This document shows positions 16,503 to 37,685 of a stretch of DNA of 64,000 bases, piece by piece. Both the position numbers and the translations under genes were made by a program. The notes under the pieces were generated by a model that ran no database searches, was not told the origin of the DNA, and saw only the letters and a program-made list of their open reading frames with translations. This DNA is from Acidobacteriota bacterium (GTDB lineage Bacteria; Acidobacteriota; Vicinamibacteria; Vicinamibacterales; UBA2999), in assembly GCA_018000455.1 (NCBI GenBank), contig JAGNJW010000008.1, positions 24,294 through 88,293 of the forward strand, in the 5' to 3' direction. The number at the start of each line of letters is the position of its first letter. Position 1 is the first letter of the stretch.

Positions 16503-17027
16503 TCAGATCGCGCCAGCGAGCACGAGCGCCGTCGCCACGACCAGACCGAGCAGCGCGACGCTCGACGCGACGATGGCGAGAACATGCACCAGGATCACGC
16601 CCGCCAACGATCGCGAGAGGATGATTCTGCTGTCGGCGTCAGGCTCGGGAGACAGACCGGTCATCGACAGCGTGAACGAGCCCCCGCGCGACAACAGGAA
16701 GGACCGCAGCTTCATCCGCACCAAACGGATCCCTTCGGAGCTCGTCGGCAACAGCGTACGACTGAGGGGCACCGCCTGGCCGCTCGCATCCGAAAGCGCG
16801 AAGTCCAAGGCTCGGAAATCGCCGGTCAGCCGGCGGCCTTCGGCCCAGAGTTCGTACGCTCCCGCCTCGGGCAGCTCGACGCTCTGGCTGGTGACGAGTG
16901 GCAGCCTGGCCACGGTCGCCGCCCGGATCCTTTGGATCAGGCTGCGAATCGTTCGGACGAGCACCAGCATCGCGCCGACGCCCAACCCGATCGCAACGGC
17001 GACCCAGCCGCTTTCGAGTGTCATCAT
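16503..17027 (-). CDS. Hypothetical membrane protein (N-terminal TM, about 100-aa beta-rich middle, C-terminal TM)
   Basis: Distal part of track ORF 16503..17570. ATGATG at 17027 is preceded by GGGAGAG. Product is MMTLESGWVAVAIGLGVGAMLVLV...GVILVHVLAIVASSVALLGLVVATALVLAGAI. Confidence 0.45.
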   Translation of the reverse strand: MMTLESGWVAVAIGLGVGAMLVLVRTIRSLIQRIRAATVARLPLVTSQSVELPEAGAYELWAEGRRLTGDFRALDFALSDASGQAVPLSRTLLPTSSEGIRLVRMKLRSFLLSRGGSFTLSMTGLSPEPDADSRIILSRSLAGVILVHVLAIVASSVALLGLVVATALVLAGAI

Positions 17028-17099
17028 GCTCTCCCGTCTCCCAACCGAGATCGTGCCCGCTGAGCCGTGAGGCGCTCTCCACGATCGCCGAGCGCCGAG

Positions 17100-17598
17100 T
17101 CGGCTCGAGCGGGATGCCAACGCAAGCAAGGTCGTGGTGTCGTCCCACAGGTCCGGGCCGTCGTCGTCGTCCACGGTCTTGAAGCCAGTGAAGGTCACGG
17201 CCTTGCCGGCGCCGTCGGCGCACACGGCCCGGTAACGCATCTGCTTCTCGCGCGGATCGGCCTGACGCACGAGCAGATTGAAGGTGCCGCGCTGCACGGG
17301 CCGCGTGCCGCCCACGAGCGGACTCGTGATCGTGCCTTCGGTCCGGGCCTCGTGCGCCGGGTCGGTCTTGAAGTGGTCGGCGTCGTCCATGTGGATTGTG
17401 AACTCGACGTCGAGACGTGTCTTCGCATCGCACTGCCGCTCATCCCCTGGCAGTACATCACCAGATTGAAGCGGCCGCCGCTGGCGCCATCGGCATGGTC
17501 GAATGTCACGCCGGCCTCGTCGAGCCACACCTGCAGCACGCCCGCCTGGAAGCCACCTTGAGTCCGTCACCGGCCAGGATCAACGCACGCTTGGGCAC
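17100..17598 (-). pseudogene. Frame-broken patatin-like phospholipase N-terminus joined to an unrelated beta-rich domain (probable pseudogene or chimera)
   Basis: Good RBS and start: GGAGG (17606..17610), 7 nt, then GTG at 17598. Three frames are needed to read it. Frame 1 gives VPKRALILAGDG. Frame 2 gives (T)QGGFQAGVLQVWLDEAGVTFDHADGASGGRFNLVMYCQG, with the patatin oxyanion G-rich loop and the GxSxG nucleophile. Frame 3 gives LDVEFTIHMDDADHFKTDPAHEA...WDDTTTLL. Confidence 0.35.
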
Positions 17599-17620
17599 GG
17601 GGAAACCTCCGGTAACACCA

Positions 17621-18232
17621 CTACGCCGAGAGCGGGCGCTGAAAAAACGGCGCGAGCAGTCCCAACACCGTGGAGACGACGATCACCGAGAGGCCGGATA
17701 GCGCTGCCGAGTACCACGACATGGCGCCGAACGGCGAGTGTGGCAGTCCGAACGCCCAAGCCGTGTAGGCGACCGTCGCGGCGAACATCTCCCAGACCGG
17801 CCACGCCCCGAACGAGAGCGGCAGTTCCCTGCCCGCTGCCTTGACCTTGGCGGCAAAGAGCAGCCACACGACCACGGGCGTTATTGCGAAGAACGACCCG
17901 AACACGATCCAGTCCGTCACGGTGATCGTCGGCGTTTGCACCGTCGCCATGACCGCGACGTAGACGGTGAGGACTTCAGTGGGAATGTAGCCGAAGAGCA
18001 CATTCATCGCCGTGTCTACTGAGGTGGCGGCGCCCGGCGGCAGCGGCGAGGCAGCAGGCGCCGGCATTCCGGGCGCGCCGAGCGGCGCCGGTGCGTCGAG
18101 CGGCGCGGGTGCGGCCACCGGCGTCGTGCGGGCAGCCAGGGCGATCTCGTCGACCGTTGACGGCACGCGGTCGAGCGGTGCGAGGTCGGTCCGTCGCGCA
18201 GACGCCGCATTGGCGAGCGAGTTGAGGCTCAT
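17621..18232 (-). CDS. Hypothetical 4-TM membrane protein with Pro/Ala-rich N-terminal region
   Basis: ORF 17621..18232. AGGAG lies 8 nt upstream of the ATG. It is the last intact gene of the 24283->17621 operon. Confidence 0.6.
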   Translation of the reverse strand: MSLNSLANAASARRTDLAPLDRVPSTVDEIALAARTTPVAAPAPLDAPAPLGAPGMPAPAASPLPPGAATSVDTAMNVLFGYIPTEVLTVYVAVMATVQTPTITVTDWIVFGSFFAITPVVVWLLFAAKVKAAGRELPLSFGAWPVWEMFAATVAYTAWAFGLPHSPFGAMSWYSAALSGLSVIVVSTVLGLLAPFFQRPLSA

Positions 18233-18256
18233 GTCGAATCTCCTGTCCGCGGGGGA

Positions 18257-19828
18257 CTACGACTTCAGCTTGTCGAGCAGCGACGCCATGGCGTCGTCGA
18301 TCGAGGCGCTCGGCACGCCCAGCCGTTTGGCCAGGCGCATCGACACCCCGCGTGAGGCGCGCGTGGGCGTTGCCCGCGGTGCCTTGACGGCGGTCGATGG
18401 CGATGCGCCGGCGTCCTCGCCACCCGGCAGATTCCGGATCGCGTTGTACAGTCCTCGTTCCAGGTTCGTGAGCGCCGGGTCGTCGGCGATCTTCGCCTGC
18501 GCCTGCACCCGGCCTACCAATTCGTCGAACTTGGGGACCCGGCTGCGCTGCTTCTTCACCGCGGGCGCCGTCGGCCCGCCGTAGCGCCATACCAGCCACA
18601 CTTCAGATCCCCACAGGCGGTCGGCGATCGACGACGACAACGAGCCACGCGGCACGAGCGAGGGACGCGCGGCGGCCGCCGCCGATACGATCACCCAGCT
18701 GTTCAGCAACATCGGCGGCACGGCGAACGTCGCGCGTGACGCTCGCCCGAGCCAGAGCGAGAGCGCGGCCACGTCTGGATGTCCCGGCACCAGCGGCTCG
18801 ATGGCATCCACGATCGCGGCCACCAACTGTCGCGCGTCAGACGGTTCGGGCCGTCCGACCGATCGGGCGATCGAGGCACCGCGGACCAGCGTGTGCGCCA
18901 CGGCCATGGCGAACGACGGATTCGGCACTGCCGATGCCGACATCGCCTCCGCGTGTGCGGTGGCAATCGTGACGTGCGGACCCGCAATCCACGACTTCGC
19001 GAGCTCGGCGTAGCCACGCACGTCGCTGGTGACGACCTCGCCGGGCCTGGCCATGAGGATGGTGGCGTTGGCCAGGTCGGCACGCCAGAGCGGCCGCTTG
19101 AGTGTTCCGTGATTGCGCATGCCGAGCAGCACCTGCGTCTGCCAGCCGGGCGAAACCACCAGCGATTGTTCGAGGCCCCGCGCGTCCTGGTCCGACGATT
19201 CACCCAGAGCGACGCGAAGCCGATAGGAGCCGGGCGCCAGCGTCGCGACGTGCGTGACGGCGGTCGGGCTGGCGTTTGCGGTCGTCGAGACGACGGTCTG
19301 CAGGTCCACCACCAGGGCGCCGCCGGCATCGCACAGCGACAGGCCGAGGGCCGGGTGTGCGTCGGGTGCCTCAGGCGAACCGGCGAGCTCGAACATCACG
19401 CCCGATGCCATGGCTGGCGTGGGCGCCAGCGCGCGGGTCTGCGGCCTGGCGCCGCGCGCCGCAGCGTGCGTCACCTCCTCACCAGTCGGGGCCGCCAGCG
19501 GCGGTGGCGGTGGCGCCGCCATCGCGAGCGGCGGTACGACTTCGCTCTTCGACAGGCCGTGCTCGAACACGTCCGGGAGCGCCACGGTGACGTCCGCCGT
19601 GCCGGACACGACCGTCGTCATCGTGCGCTCGACATCGCCGCGCCGGAACTTCAGCTTGTAGATGCCGGCCGGTACCTCACGCGTCAACGTACCCACCGAG
19701 CGGCTGACGAGGCGGAACGTGTAGTCGATGAGAAACACTTCCGTGTCGGGCGGCGCCTTCACGATGAGACGGGTCGTGGGCCCTTCCGGGCTGGCGCCGC
19801 GCGGGCCGGTCGGATCAGATGTCGACAT
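18257..19828 (-). CDS. Hypothetical 523-aa protein: two PEGA-like beta-sandwich modules, a helical region and an HTH-like C-terminal tail
   Basis: ORF 18257..19828. GGAGGG lies upstream of the ATG, and the start overlaps the caspase-like gene by 14 nt. Modules: ...VPAGIYKLKFRRGD... and ...LAPGSYRLRVALGE.... Tail: SMRLAKRLGVPSASIDDAMASLL. Confidence 0.65.
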   Translation of the reverse strand: MSTSDPTGPRGASPEGPTTRLIVKAPPDTEVFLIDYTFRLVSRSVGTLTREVPAGIYKLKFRRGDVERTMTTVVSGTADVTVALPDVFEHGLSKSEVVPPLAMAAPPPPPLAAPTGEEVTHAAARGARPQTRALAPTPAMASGVMFELAGSPEAPDAHPALGLSLCDAGGALVVDLQTVVSTTANASPTAVTHVATLAPGSYRLRVALGESSDQDARGLEQSLVVSPGWQTQVLLGMRNHGTLKRPLWRADLANATILMARPGEVVTSDVRGYAELAKSWIAGPHVTIATAHAEAMSASAVPNPSFAMAVAHTLVRGASIARSVGRPEPSDARQLVAAIVDAIEPLVPGHPDVAALSLWLGRASRATFAVPPMLLNSWVIVSAAAAARPSLVPRGSLSSSIADRLWGSEVWLVWRYGGPTAPAVKKQRSRVPKFDELVGRVQAQAKIADDPALTNLERGLYNAIRNLPGGEDAGASPSTAVKAPRATPTRASRGVSMRLAKRLGVPSASIDDAMASLLDKLKS

Positions 19829-20840
19829 GCATGGTCCCTCCCGCCCCCACCAGCTCCACGGTTTTCGCTTTCGCGGCCGTTCTGACCTGGTACAGGCCAG
19901 GACGAAGCCCCCAGGTGAGCGTGGCGGCGGTCATCGCGCTCGGCGGCACCACCGTCGTCAAATCGCCGAGCACCAGAGTGGGAACCTCGCCGGTGAAGCT
20001 CACCACGAGCTCGTAGGGTGCGGCGAGCTGCGCCAGGCCTTCCACCAGCACGAAGTCGTCCTCGGCGCCGGCCGGAAACTCCGGTGTCTGCTTGTTGTTG
20101 GGGTTCTCGCCTTCGGCTTTGGCCTCGGCGTCCAGGGCATTGGTGACGAAGTTCTTCAGCAGCAGCCCAGTGACACGCCCCTGCGCATCCGCCGCCTTGG
20201 TCAAGCCGGCAACCAGGGCCTCGGTGAAGCGGCCTCGCACCTGGCCGCCGTTGGTCGGCGTGGGCCGCTCGCGCGATGCCATGGCGAAGCCGGTGGCATA
20301 GCCGATGAAAACGCGCGACGGCGGCGGGTTCAGTTTGGGATTCCAGGGCACGGGCCTCAGCGGCGCCGTCTGCTGCACCTCACGGCAGCAATCCATGAAC
20401 AAGACGATCTCCTTGAACAGAGCCGCCATTCGGAACCACTCGACGTACTTCTTCCCGGCGATGTGGTGGCCGGTGCGATCGCGTGTCGCGTTGGCCATCA
20501 GCAGGTTGACGTCTTCGGTGCTGCTGGCGAAACCGTGACCGGCAAAGAAGAGGTACAGCCGTCGGCCCCCGACCGAGCCGTTCGCCTTGGCCTCGTCGAG
20601 GATCCGTTCGAACGCAAGATCGATCGTGGCCTCGGTCGGGGTTGGACCCTCGGCGGTGGCGCCCGACACGATCGTCGTCACCCGGGCGGCGGGCACGTTG
20701 CCACCGGTCGGCGAGACCAGCCACTTGACGACCTCGAGCGCGTCGCGCTCCGGTCCCGCCAGGTCCTTCGAGTCGCCGTTGTCCTGGAGGCCCGGGTAGT
20801 GGTTGATACCCACGACCACCGCGCGATCGTCTGCTGCCAT
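19815..20840 (-). CDS. Caspase-like (peptidase C14 / orthocaspase-type) protease with C-terminal beta-sandwich
   Basis: VVVGINHYPG... is followed by a His in LYLFFAGHG (codon 20535..20537) and a Cys in VLFMDCCRE (codons 20385..20390). The C-terminal module reads LRPGLYQVRTAAK. Confidence 0.75.
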   Translation of the reverse strand: MAADDRAVVVGINHYPGLQDNGDSKDLAGPERDALEVVKWLVSPTGGNVPAARVTTIVSGATAEGPTPTEATIDLAFERILDEAKANGSVGGRRLYLFFAGHGFASSTEDVNLLMANATRDRTGHHIAGKKYVEWFRMAALFKEIVLFMDCCREVQQTAPLRPVPWNPKLNPPPSRVFIGYATGFAMASRERPTPTNGGQVRGRFTEALVAGLTKAADAQGRVTGLLLKNFVTNALDAEAKAEGENPNNKQTPEFPAGAEDDFVLVEGLAQLAAPYELVVSFTGEVPTLVLGDLTTVVPPSAMTAATLTWGLRPGLYQVRTAAKAKTVELVGAGGTMHVDI

Positions 20841-20844
20841 GGCC

Positions 20845-22998
20845 TCAGAACGGGTAGAGCGTCTTGATGAAGGCGATGTCGGTCGGCGACAGCGTCTTGT
20901 TCAGGCCCACCGACATCCCGTCGCTCGTGAAACGTGGATCGATGGGGTACATCATGATCGACTGTGGATCGGGCGTCGAGAACACCGTCAGCGACTTGTC
21001 GTAGGTGGCAAACAGGTTGGTGTCGACCTTCTCCTTGGTCCAGAAGTTGGGCGGTCCGGCGTAGTACTCGTAGACCACGTCCTTGTTCCACTGGATGCCG
21101 CCGAGCGGATGGTTGTGCTCGTGGATGCAGCCCAGGGCATGCCCGAACTCGTGCAGTACCACGCGCGCCACTTCGTCGTCGGTGGAATCGGCGCGTAGCC
21201 AGCCGAAGTTCATCGTCGGTTCAGCAGCGTCGATGCTGAGGCACTCGCGCCCGACATACGACCAGGAGCCGCGTCGCTGGAACGAAATCCGGATCGGCGC
21301 ATCGGCGGCGGTGCCGAAGGCCAGCTGGATGTTGGCATGCCGCATCCACTCCGTTGCCGCGGCCTGCACACGGGCCTGAATGGCGGGATCGCCGTCGAGG
21401 AAGCGGATGCGCAGGATCTGCCCGGGCGCCCACGTCGAGTCCTTGACGAGCGCCATGCGCTCGGTGCTCTTGGGCGGCGTGGCACGGCGGTCGATGCAGG
21501 CCAGGAAGTCGCCGGCATCGCTACCGCCGGCAGCCGCCAGCGGCGCCGGCGCCGATCGGTCGCCGGGGGGCGACTGGCCCGCGCCCTTGATGAAGCGTTC
21601 GAAGGCCGAGCGGACCACGACTGCGCCGTCGTGTTCGTCACGCGGCAACTGGGCCAGACGCGCGCCGCGCTCACGCGGCGTCTCGGCCATCTCGAGCTTC
21701 TTGGTCGTCTCGATGAGGCTGACCTGGAACTCCGAGAGCGGTTCGTGCGAAGCCTCGGCCTCGAGCGAAGCGAGCACGGCGTCGTCGTCCATGGCGGCGC
21801 CCGTGGAGGGCGCCATCGGCGCCGCAATCGGAGCCGGAGGCCGCGGCAGATGCGTCGGCGTGTCGGTGCGCAGCGTGTTCGTGAGGTTGCGCGTGAAGGT
21901 GTTGGCGTCGCGATCGCGCGCCGTGAGGAACGCCGGCAGATCGAAGATCTCCTTGACGGTCGCCGGCACCGAGGTGTGGTCGTAGAGCGTGTGGTCGAGG
22001 GTGCCCTTGGCCACGAACGGCGACACGATGATGGCCGGCACGCGCAAGCCCAGCTTGCGGAAGTCGCACGCCGGATCACCGCTGTTGAGGCCGTCGGGGG
22101 ACACGCAGTCGGGCGGCAGCACGTGGTCGTACATGCCGCCGTGCTCGTCGTAGGTGATGACGAGCAGCGTGTGCTGCCAGACTGGCGAGTTGCGGATCGT
22201 CTCGTAAACGTCGGCAATGAGCTGCTCGCCGAGCGCCACATCGTGCGGTGGGTGCTGGTCGTTGGCCTTGAGCCCGAGAAAGTCGAAGTAGCGCGGCTCA
22301 ATGAACGAGTACGACGGCAGCGAGCCCGACTGGCAGTCGAGCGCGAAGAACACCTGGAAGGTCTTGAAGTTCTTCTTGTAGGCCGGATTGCGCAGGCTGC
22401 CCAGGGTCACGCACTGCGGCATGTCGTGGAAGTAGACCGTCCAGTCTTCCTGGGCGGCCGTCAGGCTGTCGAAAATGGTCTTCATCGGGTAGTTGCGGAA
22501 CTGGTTGTCGTTGAAGCCGCCGGAGGTGGCGGCATGCACGAAGAACCGGTTCGGCCAGGTCTGGCCCGGCACCGACGAGAACCAACGGTCGCACAGCGCG
22601 AACTCCCGCGCCAGCGTGCTGAGCACGGGCAGTTTCTGCGGATCGAAGCACTTCATGATGCGCTTGCCGCCCTCGACGTCGTTGTCGGGCAACGACGCGT
22701 AGTCTTTCACGAACCCGATGCTCGTCTCGGCCGGCGGCGTCGCCGGCACCGTCGGCGAGTTGTAGATCTGCATGTTGACGTGCGTGTATTCGTGCGACGG
22801 ATCCACCGCCGGGTCGCCGAAATCGCCGAGGTAACGGGCGTCGTTCGTCACGGGCACCTTCGTCGAGGCGGGATCGGCCGGATCGACGCGGTTGAACTCC
22901 GCACCGGTCAAACCGTCGCCGCTGCCGAGGAACCCCAGCATGTGGTCGAACGAGCGATTCTCGAGCATGAGGACGACGACGTGACGGATGCTCGGCAT
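20845..22998 (-). CDS. Fusion protein: N-terminal phosphoesterase (phospholipase C / AcpA family) and C-terminal astacin-like zinc metalloprotease
   Basis: N-terminus MPSIRHVVVLMLENRSFDHMLGFLG is the PLC-type phosphoesterase signature. The C-terminal HEFGHALGCIHE (21118..21153) fits HExxHxxGxxHE, and SIMMY fits the Met-turn. No signal peptide is visible. Confidence 0.85.
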   Translation of the reverse strand: MPSIRHVVVLMLENRSFDHMLGFLGSGDGLTGAEFNRVDPADPASTKVPVTNDARYLGDFGDPAVDPSHEYTHVNMQIYNSPTVPATPPAETSIGFVKDYASLPDNDVEGGKRIMKCFDPQKLPVLSTLAREFALCDRWFSSVPGQTWPNRFFVHAATSGGFNDNQFRNYPMKTIFDSLTAAQEDWTVYFHDMPQCVTLGSLRNPAYKKNFKTFQVFFALDCQSGSLPSYSFIEPRYFDFLGLKANDQHPPHDVALGEQLIADVYETIRNSPVWQHTLLVITYDEHGGMYDHVLPPDCVSPDGLNSGDPACDFRKLGLRVPAIIVSPFVAKGTLDHTLYDHTSVPATVKEIFDLPAFLTARDRDANTFTRNLTNTLRTDTPTHLPRPPAPIAAPMAPSTGAAMDDDAVLASLEAEASHEPLSEFQVSLIETTKKLEMAETPRERGARLAQLPRDEHDGAVVVRSAFERFIKGAGQSPPGDRSAPAPLAAAGGSDAGDFLACIDRRATPPKSTERMALVKDSTWAPGQILRIRFLDGDPAIQARVQAAATEWMRHANIQLAFGTAADAPIRISFQRRGSWSYVGRECLSIDAAEPTMNFGWLRADSTDDEVARVVLHEFGHALGCIHEHNHPLGGIQWNKDVVYEYYAGPPNFWTKEKVDTNLFATYDKSLTVFSTPDPQSIMMYPIDPRFTSDGMSVGLNKTLSPTDIAFIKTLYPF

Positions 22999-22999
22999 A

Positions 23000-24283
23000 T
23001 CAGTACACCTTGGTGGAGATGGAGAAGAACCAGGTCGTCTTGCGACGCTCCCGGATCAGCCGGAAGATGTTCGGTTCGGCCGCGGCGTCCTCGCCCTCGG
23101 ATTCCTTGCCGAAGACCGCGCCCCCGCTGACCACGATACGACTGAAGAGCAGCACCGACGGACCGGCGAAGATCCGCCTGCCGGGCGCTCGCACATCGGT
23201 GCCGAGACTGAAGGCCGCGCCTACCCGGCTTTGTCGACGGTCACCGGTGACGTCGTCATTCGAGCCGTAGAGCTGCCAGCCGAGGAACAGCGTGTAGCCG
23301 ATGCTTCCAGCGGTGCTGCCCTGCTGCTGGAAGAGCTCCTCCTCGCCAAACGTGCCGGCCCGCTTCACCTTGTCGAAGGCCAGGTCACGCAGACCGGAGA
23401 AGGAGACGCCGCCGTGCACGACCAGCGGCATCGTCGACTGAACGAAGTAACCCACCTCGTCCACGGGCGTCACGCCGCCGGCTTCGTCGAGGGCCACGAC
23501 CGTGAAGGTCACGCGCGTGCCTGGTTGGCGCTTTCCGACGCGCTTGACCTCGATCCCGATGGCCTTGGCCGACAGCCGGAGGAAGATCTCGGCCCGTTCG
23601 CTCACCGCAGCGTGGAGCTCGGTGATGGCGCGGTACATCTCCCGCCGCTCGCCGTAGATCGCGGCAAAGGCCGCTGTGTTGGCCGGGTTCAGCAGGAAGC
23701 TCTGAAGGTCGGCGCGCGCCCGGCCGAGCACTTCCACCTGGCCGGCGATACCGGTCTTCGGCTGCGTGGTCTCACTGCCGCGCGCCCGGGCGAGCGACTC
23801 GGCCTGCGCCGCGGTCAGGCCGGTGGCCGTGTAGGGCCGCGCCGCCGCCGCAATCGCCGCGTCGGTGTCTAGCGACAGCGCGTACAGTGTCTGAAGCTTC
23901 TGGAGCAGCGGGTCGGCCGCCGGTGTGCCTGGAGCGCCTTCCGCGAGCACGCCAGCCAGCGAGGGGCTCAAGATGCTGCTCCACAGCTTGGCCAGGTATC
24001 CGTAGCTCTCCGACCGCTGTTCGGCCACGTCGAACTTGAGCGTGTAGCGCAGGAAGTTGAAGTGCTCGATGCAGACGTCGACCCGGTCGCGGTCGGTGAT
24101 CCGAGTCTCGATGGGCGGCGTCGTGCGCCATTCCCCCTCCTCGAACCGGACGGTGAACCGCGCCGTCGTGGAGACACGGTCGCCGCAGCTGACGGCGGAC
24201 TGCGCCGAGGCGAGTGCCGGGGTCAGGGCGGCCAATCCAACGGTCGCCACGATTGCTCTTACGATCGGACTCATGGTGGGCAC
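23000..24283 (-). CDS. Secreted hypothetical protein, C-terminal half beta-rich (possible outer-membrane protein); first gene of the operon
   Basis: ORF 23000..24283 has a GTG start. An alternative ATG at 24274 gives MSPIVRAIVATVGLAALTPALASAQ. The protein ends ...TTWFFSISTKVY. Its stop lies 1 nt before the ATG of the next gene. Confidence 0.65.
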   Translation of the reverse strand: MPTMSPIVRAIVATVGLAALTPALASAQSAVSCGDRVSTTARFTVRFEEGEWRTTPPIETRITDRDRVDVCIEHFNFLRYTLKFDVAEQRSESYGYLAKLWSSILSPSLAGVLAEGAPGTPAADPLLQKLQTLYALSLDTDAAIAAAARPYTATGLTAAQAESLARARGSETTQPKTGIAGQVEVLGRARADLQSFLLNPANTAAFAAIYGERREMYRAITELHAAVSERAEIFLRLSAKAIGIEVKRVGKRQPGTRVTFTVVALDEAGGVTPVDEVGYFVQSTMPLVVHGGVSFSGLRDLAFDKVKRAGTFGEEELFQQQGSTAGSIGYTLFLGWQLYGSNDDVTGDRRQSRVGAAFSLGTDVRAPGRRIFAGPSVLLFSRIVVSGGAVFGKESEGEDAAAEPNIFRLIRERRKTTWFFSISTKVY

Positions 24284-24744: not shown

Positions 24745-26412
24745 TCAGTCGCGCAGTCCGAAGGTAAAGAGCGCGTTGCCGGCGATGACCGTCACGTACT
24801 GCTTGCCCTCGACCATGTAGGTGACCGGGCCCATCACGATCTGGCCGCCGAGACTGGCCTTGAAGAGCAGGGCGCCGGTGCGGGCGTCGAGGGCCATGAA
24901 GTGGCCTTCGCGACCGCCGGTGAAGAGCAGGTCACTGGCCGTCGTGAGCATCCCAGCGTCGCTCACGTCGAACTGGCGCAGCTTCCACTTCGGCTGGCCG
25001 GTGTCAGGGTCCATGGCGACGACGGCGCCGTTGCCCACTTCGTCGGTCCAGTTGTTGATCGGGCCGCGGCGGCCGATGCCGATCGTTGGCGCGCCGGGCG
25101 CCGGCGTGACCACGCTGAAGCCGCCGCCGGTGAAGAGCTGGCCGGGCGTGTAGGTGGATTCCTCGGGACGGTAGATCGTGCCGTAGTTCTCCCACGCTGA
25201 GAAGTAGAAGAGGCCCGTGCGCGGACTGTAGGACGGCACATACCAATTGGTGCCACCCTGGTTGCCCGGATACGTGGGGGAGCCGGGCGGCTGCGGCGTC
25301 TGCTGCGGCCGGCCCACGGCGTCGAGACCGCTGGCCCAGTTCACCTTCACGAACGGCGTGCCGGCCAGGAACTCGCCGGTCACGCGGTCGAGCACGTAGA
25401 AGTAGCCGTTGCGATTGGCCCACAGCATCAGCTTGCGCGGCTGGCCCTTCCACATGCGATCGACGAGCACCGGCACCTGCACGGCATCGTAGTCGTAGGG
25501 ATCGTGCGGCGTGAACTGGAAGTGCCACCTGAGCGCGCCGGTGTCGGCATCGAGCGCGATCGCCGAGTCGGAGTAGAGGTTGTCGCCGGGCCGCTGCTTC
25601 GGGTTCCAGTCGGGTCCCGGATTGCCGATGCCCCAGTAGACGAGATTGAGCGCCGGGTCGTAGGAGCCGGTGACCCAGGCCGGTGCGCCGCCGGTCTTCC
25701 AGTCGTCGCCCTCCCAGGTGTCGTGGCCGGGTTCGCCGGGGCCGGGAATCGTGTAGAACTTCCAGACTTCCTTGCCGCTCCTGGCATCGTAGGCCGCGAC
25801 GTAGCCGCGGATGCCGTACTCGCCGCCGCCGACGCCCACGAGCACCTTGTCCTTGATGACGAGCGGCGCCATCGTGATCGAGTAGCCGGCCTTCACATCA
25901 CCCACGGCGACGTTCCAGCGTGCCTTGCCGCTGACGCGGTCGATGGCGACGAGCCGCGCATCGAGCGTGCCCATGAACACCAGATCGCCGAGGATGGCGA
26001 CGCCGCGGTTGTTGGCGCCGCAGCATACCTTGGCATCGGGCGAGGGCGTGTGGCGGTAGAGCCAGTAGAGCGATCCGGTCTTGGCATCCACGGCCATCAC
26101 GTCGTTGGGCCGCTGGGTGAGGTACATCATGCCGTCCACCACCAACGGATTCGACTGCCAGGCGCCGAACACCTGGTTCTGCACCACCCACTTCGATTCG
26201 AGCCGCGCGACGTTGGCCGGTGTGATCTGGTCGAGCGTGCTGTAGCGCTGACTCGTGTAGGTACCGCCGTAGGTGAGCCAGTTGTGCGGCTCACTCGCCG
26301 CTCGGAGCAGGCGATCGCTGGTCACCTGCGCATCGAGGGCGTAGGAGCCGGCCATGAGGGCCACGAGCAGCAGCGTGAATCCCACGCGCGGACGACCGTT
26401 GACGCGGCTCAT
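24745..26412 (-). CDS. PQQ-dependent alcohol dehydrogenase (methanol/ethanol family quinoprotein)
   Basis: Track ORF 24745..27048 is over-extended. The ATG at 26412 gives MSRVNGRPRVGFTLLLVALMAGSYALDAQ. Also seen: NWLTYGGTYTSQRYS, the vicinal Cys pair in DAKVCCGANNRG, and 8-bladed propeller repeats. Confidence 0.9.
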   Translation of the reverse strand: MSRVNGRPRVGFTLLLVALMAGSYALDAQVTSDRLLRAASEPHNWLTYGGTYTSQRYSTLDQITPANVARLESKWVVQNQVFGAWQSNPLVVDGMMYLTQRPNDVMAVDAKTGSLYWLYRHTPSPDAKVCCGANNRGVAILGDLVFMGTLDARLVAIDRVSGKARWNVAVGDVKAGYSITMAPLVIKDKVLVGVGGGEYGIRGYVAAYDARSGKEVWKFYTIPGPGEPGHDTWEGDDWKTGGAPAWVTGSYDPALNLVYWGIGNPGPDWNPKQRPGDNLYSDSAIALDADTGALRWHFQFTPHDPYDYDAVQVPVLVDRMWKGQPRKLMLWANRNGYFYVLDRVTGEFLAGTPFVKVNWASGLDAVGRPQQTPQPPGSPTYPGNQGGTNWYVPSYSPRTGLFYFSAWENYGTIYRPEESTYTPGQLFTGGGFSVVTPAPGAPTIGIGRRGPINNWTDEVGNGAVVAMDPDTGQPKWKLRQFDVSDAGMLTTASDLLFTGGREGHFMALDARTGALLFKASLGGQIVMGPVTYMVEGKQYVTVIAGNALFTFGLRD

Positions 26413-27179
26413 TGCACACCTCGCAGCGACAGGAGATAGGCGACCAGGTCGGCGACCTCGTCGGTCGAGAGCGTCTTGGCCACCGACGGCATCGGTGAGG
26501 TGGTGGCAGTGTTCATGGTCTTGATGTCGGCCTTGACGACGGTGGCGAGCTCGCCGGTGTCGGTGACGAGCTGCACCGAGAAGGTGTCTTCGTTCACCCG
26601 CCGCCCACGGAGGATCTTGCCGGCGGTCGTGACGATGGTGACCGGGCGGTTGATGGGCGGCATGGCGCGCGAGGGTTCGAGCAGCGCGCGCTGCAGGGCG
26701 GCCGGCGTGCGCAGGGCGCCGATGTCGCTCAAGTCGGGTGCGGTGAGCGGGCCGGCGCCGTGCACGCGGTGGCAGGTCGCGCAGGCGGCCTTGCCGGCAA
26801 AGAGCCCCTGTCCGCTCGCGATGTTGCCGACCTTGACGGCCGTGCCCTCGGGGTCGAAGCCGGCCCGGATCATGGCGATGATGCCGGTGACCTCGGCCGG
26901 CGCCAGGGAGAAGGCCGGCATCCCGGGGGGCACGCCCTTCGCGATGACCTGTGCCAGGTCGTCGTCGGTGACGGCGCGGCGGAAACGTCCGCGCCGCAGG
27001 TCCACCCCGGCCACCGTGTCGCCATTGGCGCCGTGACAGAGCTGGCACTGTGCGGCGTAGACACGCACGCCGGTGGTGATATCAGCGGAGCTGTAGGTGT
27101 GATCCTGGGCGGGGGCGGGGGCGGCTACCGCGAGCAGCAAGGTCAGGCAAAGTAGCGTCGGGCGCCGGAGTACGAGCAT
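26409..27179 (-). CDS. Dihaem c-type cytochrome (probable electron acceptor of the PQQ dehydrogenase)
   Basis: Internal ATG at 27179 gives MLVLRRPTLLCLTLLLAVAAPAPAQ. Two CxxCH motifs (CQLCH, CATCH). ATGA overlap with the dehydrogenase start. Confidence 0.85.
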   Translation of the reverse strand: MLVLRRPTLLCLTLLLAVAAPAPAQDHTYSSADITTGVRVYAAQCQLCHGANGDTVAGVDLRRGRFRRAVTDDDLAQVIAKGVPPGMPAFSLAPAEVTGIIAMIRAGFDPEGTAVKVGNIASGQGLFAGKAACATCHRVHGAGPLTAPDLSDIGALRTPAALQRALLEPSRAMPPINRPVTIVTTAGKILRGRRVNEDTFSVQLVTDTGELATVVKADIKTMNTATTSPMPSVAKTLSTDEVADLVAYLLSLRGVQ

Positions 27180-27252
27180 GGAGCGCACTTGTACCCGTTC
27201 GTCACCGGCCGTGCAACCCAATACCCACGGCTCACCCTGAATCCGTCGGATA

Positions 27253-29142
27253 ATGACCGCCATGCGCATGATGTTTCAGGTCGTCGTCTGTGCCGGGCTC
27301 GTCGCCGCGCTGGCGGCGCCGGCGGCCGCGCAGGCGCCGGTGGCCTACCGCGTGTCGTTTCCGACGCCCGAGCACCGCTGGATGCAGGTGGAGGTCACCT
27401 TTCGCGACGTGCCGGCCGGTCCGCTGCAGGTGCGCATGAGCCGTAGCTCGCCGGGCCGCTACGCCCTGCACGAGTTCGCCAAGAACGTGTTCGACGTGCA
27501 GGTGAAGGACGGCAAGGGCCGTTTGCTCGCGCCGCTGCGGCCGAACCTCCACCAGTGGACCGTGCCCGGCCACGACGGCACGGTGGTGGTCAGCTACCGC
27601 GTGTTCGGCGATCGCACCGACGGCACCTATCTCAGCGTGGACGCGACGCACGCACACCTGAACATGCCGGCCTCGCTCATGTGGGCGCGCGGGCTCGAGC
27701 AGCGCACGGCGCGCGTCGAGTTCGTGCCGCCGCCGGGCGCGACCTGGAACGTCGCCACGCAGCTCTTCCCCACGGGCAGCCCGCACGTCTTCACCGCGCC
27801 CAACCTGCAGTACCTGATGGACAGCCCGGCCGAAGTGGGCACCTTCGCCCTGCGGACCTTCGCCGTCGACGACGGTAAGGGCCCGCAGACGTTCCGCATC
27901 GCGCTGCACCACGACGGCAGCGATGCCGAGGCCGACGCCCTTGCCCGAGACGTCGAGAAGATCGTACGCGAGACGATGCCGATCTTCGGCGAGCTGCCGC
28001 GCTTCGACGGCGGCACCTACACGTTTCTTTCCGACTACCTGCCGTGGGCGAGCGGCGACGGCATGGAGCATCGCAACAGCACGGTGCTCTCGTCGCCGGG
28101 GGGCCTGCGCAGTCCCGGCCAGCGTGCCGGCATCATCGGCACCGTCGCCCACGAGTTCTTCCACGCCTGGAACATGGAACGCATCCGGTCGAAGGCGATC
28201 GAGCCCTTTGATTTCGAAGACGCCAACATGTCGGGCGAGCTGTGGTTCGGCGAAGGCTTCACGAGCTACTACGACGCCCTCATCACCCAGCGCGCCGGGC
28301 TGACCACGCTCGACGACATGCTGGGCGACTACGCGGGCCTCGTCAACGCCGTGACTCTGGCGCCGGGCCGCCACATCCGCACCGCCGAGCAGATGTCGCA
28401 ACTGGCGCCGTTTGTCGATGCCGCCGTGTCGATCGACAAGACGGCGTGGCCCAACACCTTCATCTCCTACTACACGTGGGGCGCCGCGCTCGGACTGGCC
28501 ATGGACCTGTCGCTGCGCGACATGACCAACGACAAGGTCACGCTCGACGACTACATGAAGCTGATGTGGACGGAGTACGGCGTGCCGGGCATGAAGGGCG
28601 CGCCCGGCGTCGTGGCCAAGACCTACACGATGGAAGACCTGCAGGGGCACCTCGCGCAGCTCTCCGGCAACGTCACGTTCGCGCGCGAGTTCTTCGCCAA
28701 GTTCGTGCAGGGGCACGAGGTGCCCGACTACGCGACGTTGCTCGGCAAGATGGGCCTGGTCGTGCGCAAGCGCGCGGCGGGGAAGTCGTGGCTCGGCAAT
28801 GCCGCCTTGCAGCCGGCAGCCGGCGGCCTGCGCGTGGGCCTGGTGCCGTTCGACTCGCCGCTCTACAAGGCCGGCGTGGCCGATGGCGATCAGCTCGTGG
28901 CCGTGGGTGGCGTGGCGGTGACGACGCCGCAGGCTGTGACCGACGTGCTCGCGAAACGCAGCCCGGGCACTTCGCTTCCCCTGCGCTTCGTGCGGCGCAG
29001 CGGCGGCGACCCCGTGACCGCCACGGTGACGCTCGAGGAAGACCCACGCATCGAGATCGTGACGGCCGAATCCACCAGGGCCGCTGTCGCGCCTGAGCAG
29101 AAGCAGCGGCGCACGGCCTGGCTGGCGTCGAAGACCCGATGA
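27253..29142 (+). CDS. M61 glycyl aminopeptidase with C-terminal PDZ domain (copy 1)
   Basis: Signal-like N-terminus. Zinc motif HEFFHAWN. The overall layout is paralogous to 37686..39497. Confidence 0.9.
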   Translation: MTAMRMMFQVVVCAGLVAALAAPAAAQAPVAYRVSFPTPEHRWMQVEVTFRDVPAGPLQVRMSRSSPGRYALHEFAKNVFDVQVKDGKGRLLAPLRPNLHQWTVPGHDGTVVVSYRVFGDRTDGTYLSVDATHAHLNMPASLMWARGLEQRTARVEFVPPPGATWNVATQLFPTGSPHVFTAPNLQYLMDSPAEVGTFALRTFAVDDGKGPQTFRIALHHDGSDAEADALARDVEKIVRETMPIFGELPRFDGGTYTFLSDYLPWASGDGMEHRNSTVLSSPGGLRSPGQRAGIIGTVAHEFFHAWNMERIRSKAIEPFDFEDANMSGELWFGEGFTSYYDALITQRAGLTTLDDMLGDYAGLVNAVTLAPGRHIRTAEQMSQLAPFVDAAVSIDKTAWPNTFISYYTWGAALGLAMDLSLRDMTNDKVTLDDYMKLMWTEYGVPGMKGAPGVVAKTYTMEDLQGHLAQLSGNVTFAREFFAKFVQGHEVPDYATLLGKMGLVVRKRAAGKSWLGNAALQPAAGGLRVGLVPFDSPLYKAGVADGDQLVAVGGVAVTTPQAVTDVLAKRSPGTSLPLRFVRRSGGDPVTATVTLEEDPRIEIVTAESTRAAVAPEQKQRRTAWLASKTR

Positions 29143-30558: not shown

Positions 30559-31182
30559 CTAGCGCGCCTCGAAGTTCCAGGAGCCGCTGAAGGTCGTTCC
30601 GGCCACGGTCAATGGCGTCATGGTCCCGCTGATCCGGGTGCCGATCACCGACCCACTGATGAACAGGTCCATCTGGACTCCCGTCTCGCTTTGCGCCGTG
30701 CCTGTGGGGCACGTGACGGTGACGGGGAACGCCGTGTCCGGCAGCGTCACCCGGCCGCCCACCGAGCCGTTGGGTGCGACAAACAGGTAGCCGTCGCTCT
30801 TTTTCATCAGCACATCCCAGCTTCCGGTTCCGTAGCTGCACGGTCCGACGCTACCGGTATGGGTCAGCTTCAAGAGACCGGGTTGGAGCACGTAGGTCAA
30901 AGCGTTTGTGGGGATCAGGGGGGCCAGCAGATCCGGAGGATCGTACGTATTCAGGATGTCGCCGGGCTCGAAGGTCACGGTCCCCTCGAATGACTGTGTC
31001 GTGTCGAGCGGCGAGACCAGGGTGCGCCTGACGGCCGTCATGGTGCCGCGCCAGCTCGCCGCGGGGGGCGGGGTCGAGGCCGTCGGCACCGGGCTCGGAC
31101 CGGCTGGTGTCGGGCTGCTACTGCCGCCGCCGCACGCCAGGGTCATCGCCAGTGGAGCCAGCGCGAGGATCAGACGCTTCAT
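30559..31182 (-). CDS. Hypothetical lipoprotein
   Basis: Lipobox in MKRLILALAPLAMTLACGGGSS, followed by a Pro-rich linker and a beta-rich body. Confidence 0.6.
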   Translation of the reverse strand: MKRLILALAPLAMTLACGGGSSSPTPAGPSPVPTASTPPPAASWRGTMTAVRRTLVSPLDTTQSFEGTVTFEPGDILNTYDPPDLLAPLIPTNALTYVLQPGLLKLTHTGSVGPCSYGTGSWDVLMKKSDGYLFVAPNGSVGGRVTLPDTAFPVTVTCPTGTAQSETGVQMDLFISGSVIGTRISGTMTPLTVAGTTFSGSWNFEAR

Positions 31183-31202
31183 CGTGTCTCTCCGTAAATG
31201 TG

Positions 31203-31234
31203 CGCGTCAGGTCGCCACCAACGGGACCTGACGC
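31203..31234 (-). promoter_or_regulatory. 5'-leader stem-loop upstream of 30559..31182
   Basis: GCGTCAGGTC - 12 nt - GACCTGACGC is a perfect 10-bp inverted repeat. Confidence 0.35.
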
Positions 31235-31244
31235 CTCACCCCTT

Positions 31245-31273
31245 AACGCGCGGACCGGCAGGAACCGGGACCA
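31245..31273 (-). repeat. Conserved 29-nt upstream element, copy 2
   Basis: The plus-strand sequence is AACGCGCGGACCGGCAGGAACCGGGACCA. It lies about 62 nt upstream of the lipoprotein start and about 40 nt upstream of the divergent sigma-factor start. Confidence 0.6.
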
Positions 31274-31313
31274 GTGGCCCGGACGCGCCGCGTTTTCGCC
31301 TCCGGGAAGGCGT

Positions 31314-31931
31314 ATGCTCAGCGCCATGGCCGAGGAGGGCGCCGCGCCCCAGGATGTGACCGCCCTGCTGCGGGAGTGGCGGGGCGGCGACGGTGCGGCG
31401 CTCGATGCCCTGATGCCGCTCGTCTACCGCGAGCTCCACCTCATCGCTGCCCGCTACATGTCGGGCGAGCGCCCGGGGCACACGCTGCAGAGCACGGCGC
31501 TCGTGAACGAGGCGTTCCTGCGTCTGGTGAAGCAGCGGGTCGACTGGCAGAGCCGCGCGCACTTCTTCGCCGTCGCCGCCACCGCCATGCGCCGCATCCT
31601 GGTCGATCACGCCCGGCGTCTGCGCGCCGGCAAGCGCGGCAGCGCCACGCCGCCAATACCGCTCGACGAGGCCGTGGCGCTCACGGCGCCGCCGCCCGGC
31701 GTGGACGCGGTGGACGCCGTGGCGCTGGATTGCGCGTTACAGGCATTGGAAGCAATCGATGCCCAGCAGGGCCGGATCATCGAGCTGCGCTTCTTCGGCG
31801 GCCTGACCGTCGAGGAGACGGCCGACGTGCTCGGGGTGTCGCCGACCACCGTGAAGCGCGAATGGGCCATCGCCCGGGCCTGGCTGCTGCGGGCCATCGA
31901 GCACGGCGCGCCCGGCTCGACGTCGCCATGA
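31314..31931 (+). CDS. ECF-type sigma-70 family factor (kinase-associated subgroup)
   Basis: ...DVTALLREWRGGDGAALDALMPLVYRELHLIAARYM...ALVNEAFLRL is the sigma-2 region. ...LRFFGGLTVEETADVLGVSPTTVKREW is the sigma-4 HTH. Alternative ATG at 31326. Confidence 0.85.
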   Translation: MLSAMAEEGAAPQDVTALLREWRGGDGAALDALMPLVYRELHLIAARYMSGERPGHTLQSTALVNEAFLRLVKQRVDWQSRAHFFAVAATAMRRILVDHARRLRAGKRGSATPPIPLDEAVALTAPPPGVDAVDAVALDCALQALEAIDAQQGRIIELRFFGGLTVEETADVLGVSPTTVKREWAIARAWLLRAIEHGAPGSTSP

Positions 31932-31938
31932 GCCGCCG

Positions 31939-34440: not shown

Positions 34441-34496
34441 CCCCGCGCGCCGGGGAGATCGCCTTGTCTTGTTGAGTCTGGCGGCAGATGCCGTCG

Positions 34497-35243
34497 TCAG
34501 GGCGACGTGGCGTAGGCGATTTCGTCGGCCACGAAGGCGCGCCACTCCGCTTCGGTGCGCACCTCGAAGGTTGCGCGCATGCGGTAGTGGCCCAGTCCGC
34601 AGAGCTGCGAGCAGCCGACCTCCCACGCCCCGGTCGTGATGGGCGTGAACCAGGCGCTCACCGGCAACCCGGGCGTCACGTCCTGCTTCACGCGCATGGT
34701 GGCCAGCGTGAAGCTGTGAATCACGTCCTTGCTCGACAGGTGCGCGACGGTCGGCCGGTCGACCGGCACGACGAGCATGCCGATGAGCACGAAGTCGTCG
34801 GCCGCGGCCGGATCGGTGCGGTCGATGCCGATCGGATCGGCCGCGGTGATGAGCGACGGCGCCGTGCGGCCGAAGCGGCCGTCGAAACCCGGGTAGTGGA
34901 AGTTCCACGCGTACTGCTCGCCGATGACGCGCACCTCGGCGGCGGCCAGAGGTGGCGGCACGGCCCGCTCGCGCCACGCCGGGAGCGCCGAACCGGCCAG
35001 CAGCCACACGTCGCCGAGCACGATGGCGGCAATCGCCATGAGCGGCCAGTGCCGGCCGGCGGGGCTGCTCGGGGCCACGCCCGCGCGCGCCCGGAACCGC
35101 ACGAGAATCATCGCGAAGATCGCCAGCCAGCTCAGGAAGACGATGGCCGCCTCGGTGTGCGCGGTGGCGAGCACGCCGTCGAACTGCGCCGCATGCGTGG
35201 AGGCGGGCGTCGGCAGCCAGCGGTTCAGCCACTCGCCGATCAC
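34497..35243 (-). CDS. ctaC: Cytochrome c oxidase subunit II (CuA cupredoxin, no fused cytochrome c)
   Basis: CuA ligands are visible in ...HSF...CSQLCGLGHYRM. The GTG start overlaps the upstream stop (GTGA). Confidence 0.85.
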   Translation of the reverse strand: MIGEWLNRWLPTPASTHAAQFDGVLATAHTEAAIVFLSWLAIFAMILVRFRARAGVAPSSPAGRHWPLMAIAAIVLGDVWLLAGSALPAWRERAVPPPLAAAEVRVIGEQYAWNFHYPGFDGRFGRTAPSLITAADPIGIDRTDPAAADDFVLIGMLVVPVDRPTVAHLSSKDVIHSFTLATMRVKQDVTPGLPVSAWFTPITTGAWEVGCSQLCGLGHYRMRATFEVRTEAEWRAFVADEIAYATSP

Positions 35244-35440
35244 GACGCGGCCCCCGGCGCCGGCCGGTGCTCATCAGCCTCGGCGGCGTCATGCCGCACG
35301 ACCGCCAGGGCGCCGCGCGCGAACGCCGCTACCACCAGCACCACCAGCGCCGCCAACACGGCGACCCCTGCGTGGAGCCCGCTCGTGAGGAGCGAATCGA
35401 GCGGACGCGCGCACACGAGGCAGGCGACAACGAGGCTCAT
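35240..35440 (-). CDS. Small (66-aa) membrane protein inside the oxidase cluster
   Basis: Product MSLVVACLVCARPLDSLLTSGLHAGVAVLAALVVLVVAAF.... It has ATGA/GTGA overlaps with both neighbours. It lies below the 60-aa-from-start logic of the track because it is embedded in the long ORF 35240..36154. Confidence 0.4.
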   Translation of the reverse strand: MSLVVACLVCARPLDSLLTSGLHAGVAVLAALVVLVVAAFARGALAVVRHDAAEADEHRPAPGAAS

Positions 35441-35997
35441 ATCAGGTACAACCCCACCACCGTCGTGAGCCACAGCGCGAACATCAGCAGCCAGTAGCGC
35501 TCCAGCATGGCACCGCGCCTGGCCCGCTGCAGTGCCGGCGCAGGTTCGAGCGCCACCCACACGGCGGCGATCGTGCCACCGGCGACGAGAACGGCCACAG
35601 TACCGGTGAGCGCATACCAGCAGGCCAGTGGAACGCTCGACGCCGGCAGGTGCCCCTGCGAGGCGAGCCACCCGGCGACGTAGATGCACCGCCAGACGAA
35701 CGCCGTGCCGGCCAGGCCCACCAGCCACGAGAAGCGTGGGAGTCCGGCGATCGGCACGCCCTCGCCCGACAGGCGCCGCGACTGCATCACCGCGAAGCCC
35801 AGCCACATGGTGCGGAACCAGTGGTCCACGGCCATCGACCACTCGCCGGCCGACCCGGCACGCCACGGCGTCTCCCAGATGGTGCTCCCGGCCCGTAGCA
35901 GCACGTAGCCCGAGAAGAGGGCGCCATAGAACATGACGACCGAGGCGATGAAGAGCCACATGCCGGTGAGTGCGGCGCGCCCTTCGCGGTCGGACAT
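35437..35997 (-). CDS. Cytochrome c oxidase subunit III-like protein
   Basis: Internal ATG at 35997 gives MSDREGRAALTGMWLFIASVVMFYGALFSGYVLLR..., a polytopic protein. Confidence 0.7.
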   Translation of the reverse strand: MSDREGRAALTGMWLFIASVVMFYGALFSGYVLLRAGSTIWETPWRAGSAGEWSMAVDHWFRTMWLGFAVMQSRRLSGEGVPIAGLPRFSWLVGLAGTAFVWRCIYVAGWLASQGHLPASSVPLACWYALTGTVAVLVAGGTIAAVWVALEPAPALQRARRGAMLERYWLLMFALWLTTVVGLYLI

Positions 35998-36008
35998 CGT
36001 GACCGCGC

Positions 36009-37655: not shown

Positions 37656-37685
37656 GGAAGCCGGCGGAGCACTTACAATACCGCC

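Follow-up and report, generated by a model that had tools for sequence, protein, structure and literature searches.

What does a run of five tightly packed genes in a member of the Acidobacteriota encode, and which part of it is a conserved system? The genes, here termed A to E, lie on the minus strand of a 64,000-nucleotide (nt) stretch of contig JAGNJW010000008.1 (GenBank assembly GCA_018000455.1, positions 24,294 to 88,293), and this whole stretch is referred to below as the window. An original prediction had described the genes as one operon that stacks three or four different executioner hydrolases with secreted and membrane partners, and had proposed a conflict or cell-death system. By comparing the locus with its relatives, we found that the conserved unit is a different one: a caspase-like peptidase (C) and protein D are obligate, and a metzincin (M) is the third core gene. 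This C-D-metzincin module is apparently unnamed, and the window holds a version of it that is armed with a phospholipase C (PLC) and decorated with A and E. We put the probability that this caspase-centred, here PLC-armed, protease-effector module serves conflict or cell death at roughly 0.55.

Gene layout and conserved core

Gene A (24283-23000, 427 amino acids, aa) ends 1 nt before gene B (22998-20845, 717 aa), as read from the sequence, and B is separated by 4 nt from gene C (20840-19815, 341 aa), with GAGG upstream of C. C and gene D (19828-18257, 523 aa) overlap by 14 nt (19815..19828, minus strand), a stop/start overlap that provides translational coupling, with GGGAGGGA upstream of D. 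Gene E (18232-17621, 203 aa) follows D after 24 nt with AGGAG upstream, and a patatin-like GTG at 17598 lies 22 nt beyond E with GGAGG upstream. Shine-Dalgarno-like purine runs thus precede C, D, E and the patatin-like GTG. Coordinates and spacings of the five packed open reading frames (ORFs; 1, 4, -14, 24 and 22 nt) were reproduced as first described, and the gene arrangement is far beyond chance. Promoter/terminator and tRNA scans of the window were uninformative.

D homologues were gathered from a protein search, one genome per species (trimmed D alignment), and from metagenomes; the loci were annotated with hidden Markov models built from the window proteins and their relatives, and were dereplicated at 85% D identity into 69 groups. 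A caspase was found immediately upstream of D in all 56 dereplicated groups with enough sequence, and a stand-alone metzincin of 220-300 aa lay upstream of the caspase in 41 of 48 groups (85%). The C/D overlap recurred as well: it was 14 nt in 37 of 47 dereplicated pairs and 17, 23 or 26 nt in the others, and no pair was separated. In 37 complete loci, pairwise distances of M, C and D were correlated (Spearman 0.71-0.75, Mantel p <= 0.001); the adjacency of M and C, with correlated distances (r 0.75), places a protease gene beside a co-evolving effector gene. The hosts belong to at least eight phyla and are patchily distributed among Acidobacteriota, Actinomycetota, Myxococcota, Gemmatimonadota, Bacteroidota, Chloroflexota, Pseudomonadota and Verrucomicrobiota. 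Taken together, these results make it very probable that M-C-D is a genuine functional module.

The predicted co-inheritance was borne out, since all 56 dereplicated loci keep C and D in synteny and the A-E block is found again in relatives whose flanks differ. It is the composition of the system that had to be revised. The conserved core is caspase, D and metzincin (85% of loci) and not a stack of executioner hydrolases, and the five genes are not the system, because the PLC, A and E occur only in the PLC lineage.

The whole A-E block was found in relatives that have different flanking DNA. Nucleotide homology with two of them (L023 and L006) starts 39 nt upstream of the A start and stops at about 17618, three bases past the E stop codon, and the flanks differ. 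Given these limits, A-E behaves as a discrete mobile cassette, and the patatin remnant beyond E is part of the flank. The remnant belongs to a decayed stretch outside the cassette (16503..17598, minus strand), which consists of a patatin-like N-terminus and a GMC-oxidoreductase-type fragment and lies before a HlyD/MacA gene. The patatin piece is frameshifted and truncated: LILAGDG... and ...GASGG are in different frames, the rest of the domain is missing, and no Pfam model matched it. In a 97%-identical locus (L022), the remnant was called as fragments of 81 and 70 aa, and 353 bp are lacking relative to the window (~16729-17082). The GMC-type fragment is 25% identical, over 130 aa, to the C-terminal part of a 768-aa GMC-oxidoreductase-type protein, which in locus L001 sits downstream of the triad. 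The patatin had been counted as a fourth effector; we rejected it as such and as a part of the system, because it is decayed and lies beyond the boundary at ~17618.

Proteins of the cassette

C carries a caspase-like C14 peptidase domain (20070..20825, minus strand; aa 6-257) with the AGHG histidine and the MDCC cysteine, to which Peptidase_C14 (PF00656) matched at 6.6e-9 with 36.2 bits against a cut-off of 21.4 (Pfam). The FFAGHG motif lies at 20549-20532 and the FMDCC motif at 20399-20385, Cys151/Cys152 are the catalytic candidates, and the His-Cys dyad motifs xGHG and MDCCR are conserved in 23 aligned relatives. The last 80 residues of C (19818..20057, minus strand; aa 262-341) form a C-terminal beta-sandwich that is homologous to both sandwiches of D, with hhalign profile-profile probabilities of 91% for D sandwich 1 and 85% for D sandwich 2. 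This homology suggests that the C sandwich may be a homotypic docking domain for D.

The caspase partner D (18257..19828, minus strand) contains two beta-sandwiches (~aa 17-90 and 141-260), an alpha-helical domain (~aa 262-465) and a C-terminal two-helix tail. Invariant residues of the helical domain are H312, H350-P-D352, PPM371-373, S377-W378, W411 and W414. An AlphaFold2 model of D had a predicted local distance difference (pLDDT) score of 74.7 and a predicted template-modelling (pTM) score of 0.74. When full-length D was searched against the PDB with Foldseek, the sandwiches resembled only generic Ig-like/carboxypeptidase-regulatory sandwiches; sequence and profile searches of the PDB with A, D and the c2 protein described below returned nothing. 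A profile search of 1.84 billion representatives recovered 2,687 clusters at 50% identity (1,444 at E <= 1e-30), and no Pfam model matched any of 19 D members at E <= 1; D is thus a large family that lacks a Pfam model. We propose that it acts as an adaptor or sensor. A prophage or phage origin was also considered and is unsupported, because D relatives were absent from the viral contigs and phage genomes searched.

B combines three parts. At its N-terminus is a phospholipase C/acid phosphatase-type phosphoesterase (21934..22989, minus strand; aa 4-355), which PF04185 matched at 5e-81 with 273 bits over model positions 1-356 of 356, and whose N-terminal metal-site motif ENRSFDH lies at 22962-22942 (aa 13-19). 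The TIGR03396 equivalog for phosphocholine-specific PLC was not reached (103 bits against a cut-off of 580). At its C-terminus is a matrix metalloproteinase (MMP)-like/astacin-like metzincin, M (20848..21438, minus strand; aa 521-717), with HEFGHALGCIHEH and a SIMMYP Met-turn. Astacin (PF01400) matched B at 1.2e-5 with 25.5 bits against a cut-off of 22.5; the zinc-site motif HEFGHALGCIHE lies at 21153-21118 and the SIMMY Met-turn at 20961-20947. Across 20 aligned relatives, HEFGHALGCIHEH and SIMMYP do not vary, and the M consensus HEFGHALGxIHEH with SIMMYP is essentially invariant among aligned relatives. Fusion of the PLC to M is confined to the lineage of the window (L006, L022, L023, L024, L095 and L096), so the PLC is best described as a lineage-specific, putative effector head fused N-terminally to the metzincin.

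Between the two enzymes lies a conserved pro-segment, GDFLACIDRRATPPKSTERMALVKD (21439..21510, minus strand; aa 497-520), with Cys501 and the basic Arg514. In the conserved M pro-segment, a Cys (in WCFAW or xCIDR) is placed ~22 residues before a conserved Trp, and an Arg/Lys, followed by [AM]-A-L, stands 9 residues before the same Trp. Stand-alone metzincins, both from related loci and from the wider family, likewise carry the segment ahead of their catalytic domain. We propose that it is a latency peptide in B and that Arg514|Met515 is a candidate caspase cleavage site; H616/E617, Cys501 and Arg514 are candidate residues for mutation. The metzincin family is large (2,644 matches at E <= 1e-10), and the two closest stand-alone relatives with retrievable context both lie in an M-C-D triad.

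The domain calls of the original prediction (PLC, astacin and C14) are backed by Pfam scores above the cut-offs. ENRSFDH, HEFGHALGCIHE, SIMMY, FFAGHG and FMDCC were all located at the predicted sites, and the catalytic motifs are intact and invariant across relatives. Both proteases, M and C, therefore look active. The predicted topology also held: A has a Sec signal peptide, E is membrane-embedded with three to four hydrophobic spans, and B, C and D have no signal peptide. None was present on the stand-alone M proteins either, unlike typical secreted astacins.

A and E appear to be accessories of the PLC-fused lineage. The Sec-type signal peptide of A ends in ASAQ (cleavage motif ASA-Q) and is kept in all 14 aligned homologues; the 21 homologues are all ~415-460 aa long with an AxAQ signal peptide, and the mature part is conserved too, up to a C-terminus reading ...FFSISTKVY. 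PLC-metzincin, caspase and D come directly after A in each of the four independent contexts examined, and in L006 A is missing except for its last 17 codons. A would thus be an exported accessory partner specific to the PLC-fused sub-lineage. E has a Pro/Ala-rich N-terminus followed by three to four transmembrane (TM) spans as judged by hydropathy; homologues are confined to L006, L022 and L023, with a partial one in L024 and none in L095. It is probably a membrane accessory restricted to the PLC-fused lineage, and the cassette ends at its stop codon. Pfam, NCBIfam and PADLOC held no family for A, D, E or c2.

Across the family, E follows D in only 3 groups, and a soluble protein of 230-330 aa, c2, follows D in 19 of 45. 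This frequent fourth component is represented in L001 (6650-7432), L008 (11596-12543) and 17 other groups, and is absent from the window. Its N-terminal motif SVSFQRTxRIPDD and the invariant Q22, R23, W75 and PQ.Y.V.P.Q are conserved, and it had no Pfam, NCBIfam or PDB match. We considered c2 as the counterpart of E and rejected it, since c2 is soluble, conserved at 230-330 aa and unrelated to the 4-TM protein E. Tandem duplications (D-C-D-C or M-C-D-C-D) were observed in L011 (2-4777), L046 and L037 (3499-9385), which come from a Gemmatimonadaceae metagenome-assembled genome and a metagenome contig.

Variable partners, fusions and neighbourhood

The position occupied by the PLC in the window lineage is filled differently elsewhere. 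A GH25 lysozyme is fused to M in L064, and a 530-aa head without an assigned identity is fused to M in L012. In four groups, a ~500-aa protein that is weakly alpha/beta-hydrolase-like, below the Pfam cut-off, stands in place of M. Separate partners include trypsin-Endonuclease_NS (trypsin-NucA; L019, L082/L033, L093 and a Sinorhizobium plasmid), trypsin-phospholipase D (PLD) and PLD (L015, L007), a GDSL lipase (L093) and an extra C25/CHAT-like protease in some related locus, and an S8 peptidase precedes C-D on a Mesorhizobium plasmid. No signal peptide or TM segment was found in B, C, D or any variable partner enzyme checked. Signs of mobility were seen as well: transposases flank L005, L094 and L097, and the C-D pair was found on two conjugative plasmids.

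Gene fusions join the same components. The caspase is fused to D in P0152 and P0195, and D to an astacin in P0171. D forms the N-terminus of NACHT/STAND fusions in P0183, P0233 and a 1,626-aa ORF in L013, and its C-terminus is joined to a GAF-HATPase module (P0011), a lectin-like 3-keto-disaccharide-hydrolase domain or a GH13-like domain. The GAF-HATPase, lectin-like and GH13-like domains are of kinds that serve as inputs. The lack of a STAND or other NTPase, from which a new trigger logic had been predicted, holds for the window cassette, where neither Pfam nor NCBIfam found a NACHT/NB-ARC NTPase, but not for the family, since relatives carry D-NACHT/STAND fusions (L013, P0183, P0233).

The window flanks are of a housekeeping type (a MacAB-type exporter, a PQQ dehydrogenase with cytochrome c, an M61 peptidase and a rhodanese). 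L022 shares the HlyD/MacA-side flank with the window and diverges ~190 nt upstream of the A start (window ~24471), which could reflect a recent rearrangement or an assembly join; at its divergent edge (L022 1-652) is a gene that clusters with the FHA/kinase-domain group. In L095 (708-3896), the divergent upstream gene encodes a 1,062-aa PLD-DEAD/ResIII helicase-DUF3427 protein of nuclease-helicase type, the sole defence-like neighbour noticed for the PLC lineage. Further upstream in the window, a 767-aa ORF (24745-27048, minus strand) is over-extended: its PQQ-dehydrogenase domain begins ~215 codons in, at a signal-peptide-like MSRVNGRPRVGFTLLLVALMAG, and a separate gene for a di-haem cytochrome c (26409-27269) overlaps the part before that. 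An extracytoplasmic function (ECF) sigma factor gene and then a gene for an 833-aa Ser/Thr kinase with tetratricopeptide (TPR) repeats lie ~7 kb upstream of the cassette (31107-34440). AT skew is unusually high at 34001-38000 (0.19-0.20), GC content reaches 0.73 in the 32-36 kb region, and long overlapping ORFs occupy both strands there (36009-38576 minus, 36357-39497 plus).

Proposed mechanism, rival readings and known systems

We propose the following mechanism. C and D would be made in fixed proportion through their overlapping stop and start and would associate via their homologous beta-sandwiches, D acting as an adaptor or sensor through which the caspase is licensed. Where relatives have D fused to a NACHT NTPase, lectin-like or GAF-kinase domain, that domain would provide the signal input. 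The activated caspase would then cut the latent metzincin after the conserved Arg/Lys (Arg514 of B); the D-x-C around the catalytic Cys would, as in metacaspases, be suited to a basic residue at P1. This cut would remove the short Cys-containing pro-segment and create the N-terminus needed for astacin-type activity. Because the PLC is on the same chain as the metzincin, activation would release both enzymes, and the freed intracellular zinc protease and phospholipase may destroy proteins and the inner membrane. Upon infection or damage, the cell would die or cease to grow as a result, with the exported A and the membrane protein E as envelope accessories of the PLC-armed version only. The specific step in which the caspase removes the M pro-segment at Arg/Lys, drawn by analogy, is a tentative part of the model. 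Equally speculative is its widest form, a phylum-spanning death machine in which three new elements would be combined: a caspase-docking adaptor family (D) with an Ig-like homotypic domain, in the CARD/PYD position when joined to NACHT; a prokaryotic caspase-to-metalloprotease zymogen cascade, switched on by loss of a cysteine-switch-like pro-peptide; and a metzincin 'warhead' slot (for PLC, lysozyme and others).

Several observations weigh against a conflict or cell-death function. No defence-island context was found at the window flanks, and among 141 neighbours of related loci the only PADLOC matches were to Ser/Thr-kinase (PD-T4-6-like) models, so the island that had been suggested as a check is seen neither here nor there; the co-directional neighbours form a largely heterogeneous set. 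A, B, D and E matched no component of PADLOC-DB v2.0, D and M among them, and C matched its generic caspase model only (2e-17). The D of the window has no recognisable sensor domain, and the isolated D helical domain had no significant PDB match in Foldseek (best E 0.64, TPR-like). An intracellular suicide model does not account for the secreted A. Common descent of the host organisms explains part of the correlation among the M, C and D distances, and the putative cleavage site and Cys-switch are argued from motif conservation and from analogy to astacin/MMP zymogens. Every family member is known from sequence and genomic comparison alone; which protein cleaves which, the trigger and the death or defence outcome are what we infer from it. 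The composition fits a protease-effector logic such as that of Evans et al. (bioRxiv 2025.11.14.688446), so the conflict or cell-death proposal of the original prediction survives as a candidate function, attached to an architecture that had been misread.

The best-surviving rival, which we nevertheless regard as improbable, is intracellular regulatory proteolysis for stress or development. Specific cellular substrates would be the targets of C, D and the metzincin, with Ser/Thr-kinase/FHA or two-component proteins in control, and the role of the attached hydrolases would be to reshape lipids or the cell wall as cells differentiate. Ser/Thr kinase or FHA-domain genes were found within 6 kb in 11 of 69 dereplicated groups, and this recurrence keeps a regulatory or developmental role alive; an FHA-Trans_reg_C gene lies upstream of A in L023; kinases are abundant in the host phyla, however, and the adjacency may be due to chance. 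A histidine kinase downstream of the locus in L010 and the D-GAF-HATPase fusion in P0011 would fit two-component control, the hosts are mostly soil bacteria with complex lifestyles, the defence-island signal is absent, and SCO6992/AbsR1, a distant relative of M, influences antibiotic production in Streptomyces (PMC9705864). On the other hand, the patchy spread, the plasmids and transposases, and the swapped nuclease, PLD, PLC and lysozyme partners are atypical of housekeeping regulators, and the D-NACHT fusions point to NLR-like (NOD-like receptor) conflict logic.

Less probable still is a maturation or delivery cassette for exported antibacterial or lytic enzymes, in which the proteases would process the cargo, D would act as chaperone and A and E would aid export. 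Interbacterial effectors of type VI and type VII secretion systems include phospholipase, muramidase, nuclease and lipase classes, and the PLC, GH25, NucA, PLD and GDSL lipase partners mirror them. Characterised PF04185 enzymes and astacins are mostly extracellular; A has a conserved signal peptide and a stop 1 nt before the B start, and E is a membrane protein. Yet B, C, D and the partner enzymes are all without a signal peptide or TM segment, and no secretion-system or obvious immunity genes lie beside the core in the loci examined, which argues against delivery. A and E are also missing from most of the family.

It is a little less likely again that the locus belongs to a described system, either CATRA (Burroughs and Aravind 2020) or the NucA-peptidase system (Kaur et al. 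2020), with D as a named domain. CATRA is described as a caspase-dependent ternary conflict system with variable effectors (PMC8195603), and its name stands for 'Caspase and TPR repeat-associated' (PMC12657218). The D helical domain gave weak, non-significant TPR-like Foldseek matches, but the conserved core has no TPR protein. Some relatives adjoin trypsin-NucA fusions, but a caspase-D pair and a metzincin are both missing from the NucA-trypsin description, and trypsin and NucA genes are both missing from the window. Pfam models matched neither D (19 members, E <= 1) nor c2, A or E. Finally, a fortuitous adjacency of unrelated genes, such as a phosphate-scavenging phospholipase beside unrelated peptidases, might be read from the metabolic and transport genes in the flanks and from the uninformative promoter and terminator scans, but it is refuted by synteny, overlap, co-variation and fusions over dozens of loci in at least eight phyla.

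If the conflict reading is true, how does the module relate to known systems? In the searchable literature, we found no published caspase-astacin system and no prokaryotic caspase-to-metalloprotease zymogen cascade. The closest parallel is provided by caspase-like proteases that lie beside alpha/beta-hydrolase, metallo-beta-lactamase, EACC1 or Pepco effectors, cleave them site-specifically and kill the infected cell (Evans et al.). There as here, a caspase-like protease gene adjoins a cytoplasmic hydrolytic effector that is latent (presumably so in our case), effectors and sensors are swapped between loci, and STAND fusions occur; in the relatives that lack M, the ~500-aa weakly alpha/beta-hydrolase-like protein stands exactly at the metzincin position. 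In contrast to those modules, a metzincin is the putative effector in our case, joined at some loci to PLC or GH25, and it lies outside the ten surveyed families; the caspase is not sensor-fused but is in every case accompanied by D, a separate protein for which those modules offer no counterpart. If the model is true, the module would add a new effector class, a cytoplasmic metzincin zymogen with an optional PLC or lysozyme, to bacterial protease-gated death modules, and D would add a new obligate caspase partner with ~2,700 clusters and no Pfam family.

Two systems of Kaur et al. (2020, eLife 9:e52696) are also related. The EACC1-caspase two-gene system likewise joins a membrane-associated partner to a caspase whose attachments vary. 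It differs in that no single-TM EACC1 gene lies upstream in the window, where the exported A measures 427 aa and the gene for the 4-TM protein E comes after D; A, D and E have no EACC1 or other Pfam match. The 'caspase, EACC1-associated type' model, the best NCBIfam match of C, stayed below threshold (37.9 bits against a cut-off of 140). Trypsin-NucA operons, a described conflict core, were proposed to act via a proteolytic cascade that deploys an effector. This NucA-peptidase 'System 3' core adjoins M-C-D at the four locations with trypsin-NucA given above, and the cascade idea is common to both.

M itself belongs to an uncharacterised 'MMP-like sub-family 3' (cd04327; PMC9705864). Its metzincin domain is shared with SCO6992/AbsR1 of Streptomyces coelicolor (NF050131; E 1.4e-34, model positions 70-254), which is reported to be a beta-glucuronidase that affects antibiotic production; full-length SCO6992 binds zinc and has a conserved HExxH, and no protease activity was seen (PMC9705864). 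Unlike AbsR1, the B C-terminus reaches 119.7 bits against an equivalog cut-off of 650, the metzincin core alone being shared. The inactivity of SCO6992 is compatible with latency, which would account for it if the model is true, although its authors read it otherwise.

Like astacin and MMP zymogens, M has an HExxHxxGxxHE zinc site, in which the third His is followed by the astacin-type Glu, and also an SxMxY Met-turn. MMPs are kept latent by a cysteine switch, and in matured astacins the new N-terminus forms a salt bridge with the Glu after the third His. M resembles the former in its short N-terminal segment with an invariant Cys before the catalytic domain, and the latter in a conserved candidate cleavage site that would give a new N-terminus (AAL/MAL...). 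It is unlike both in being cytoplasmic, without a signal peptide, in a pro-segment of only ~23 residues, and in its proposed activator, a caspase homologue.

Caspase-recruiting adaptor domains occupy the N-terminus of NLR/Apaf-1 proteins, and D has this same N-terminal place in the D-NACHT fusions. As in apoptosome and inflammasome logic, D and the caspase share a homotypic domain and the executioner would lie downstream of the protease; the likeness is one of analogy only, since the shared domain is an Ig-like beta-sandwich and not a death-fold, and the D of the window has no NTPase. If the model is true, the module would be a bacterial analogue, with defined residues, of the eukaryotic chain that leads from an adaptor through an initiator protease to an executioner.

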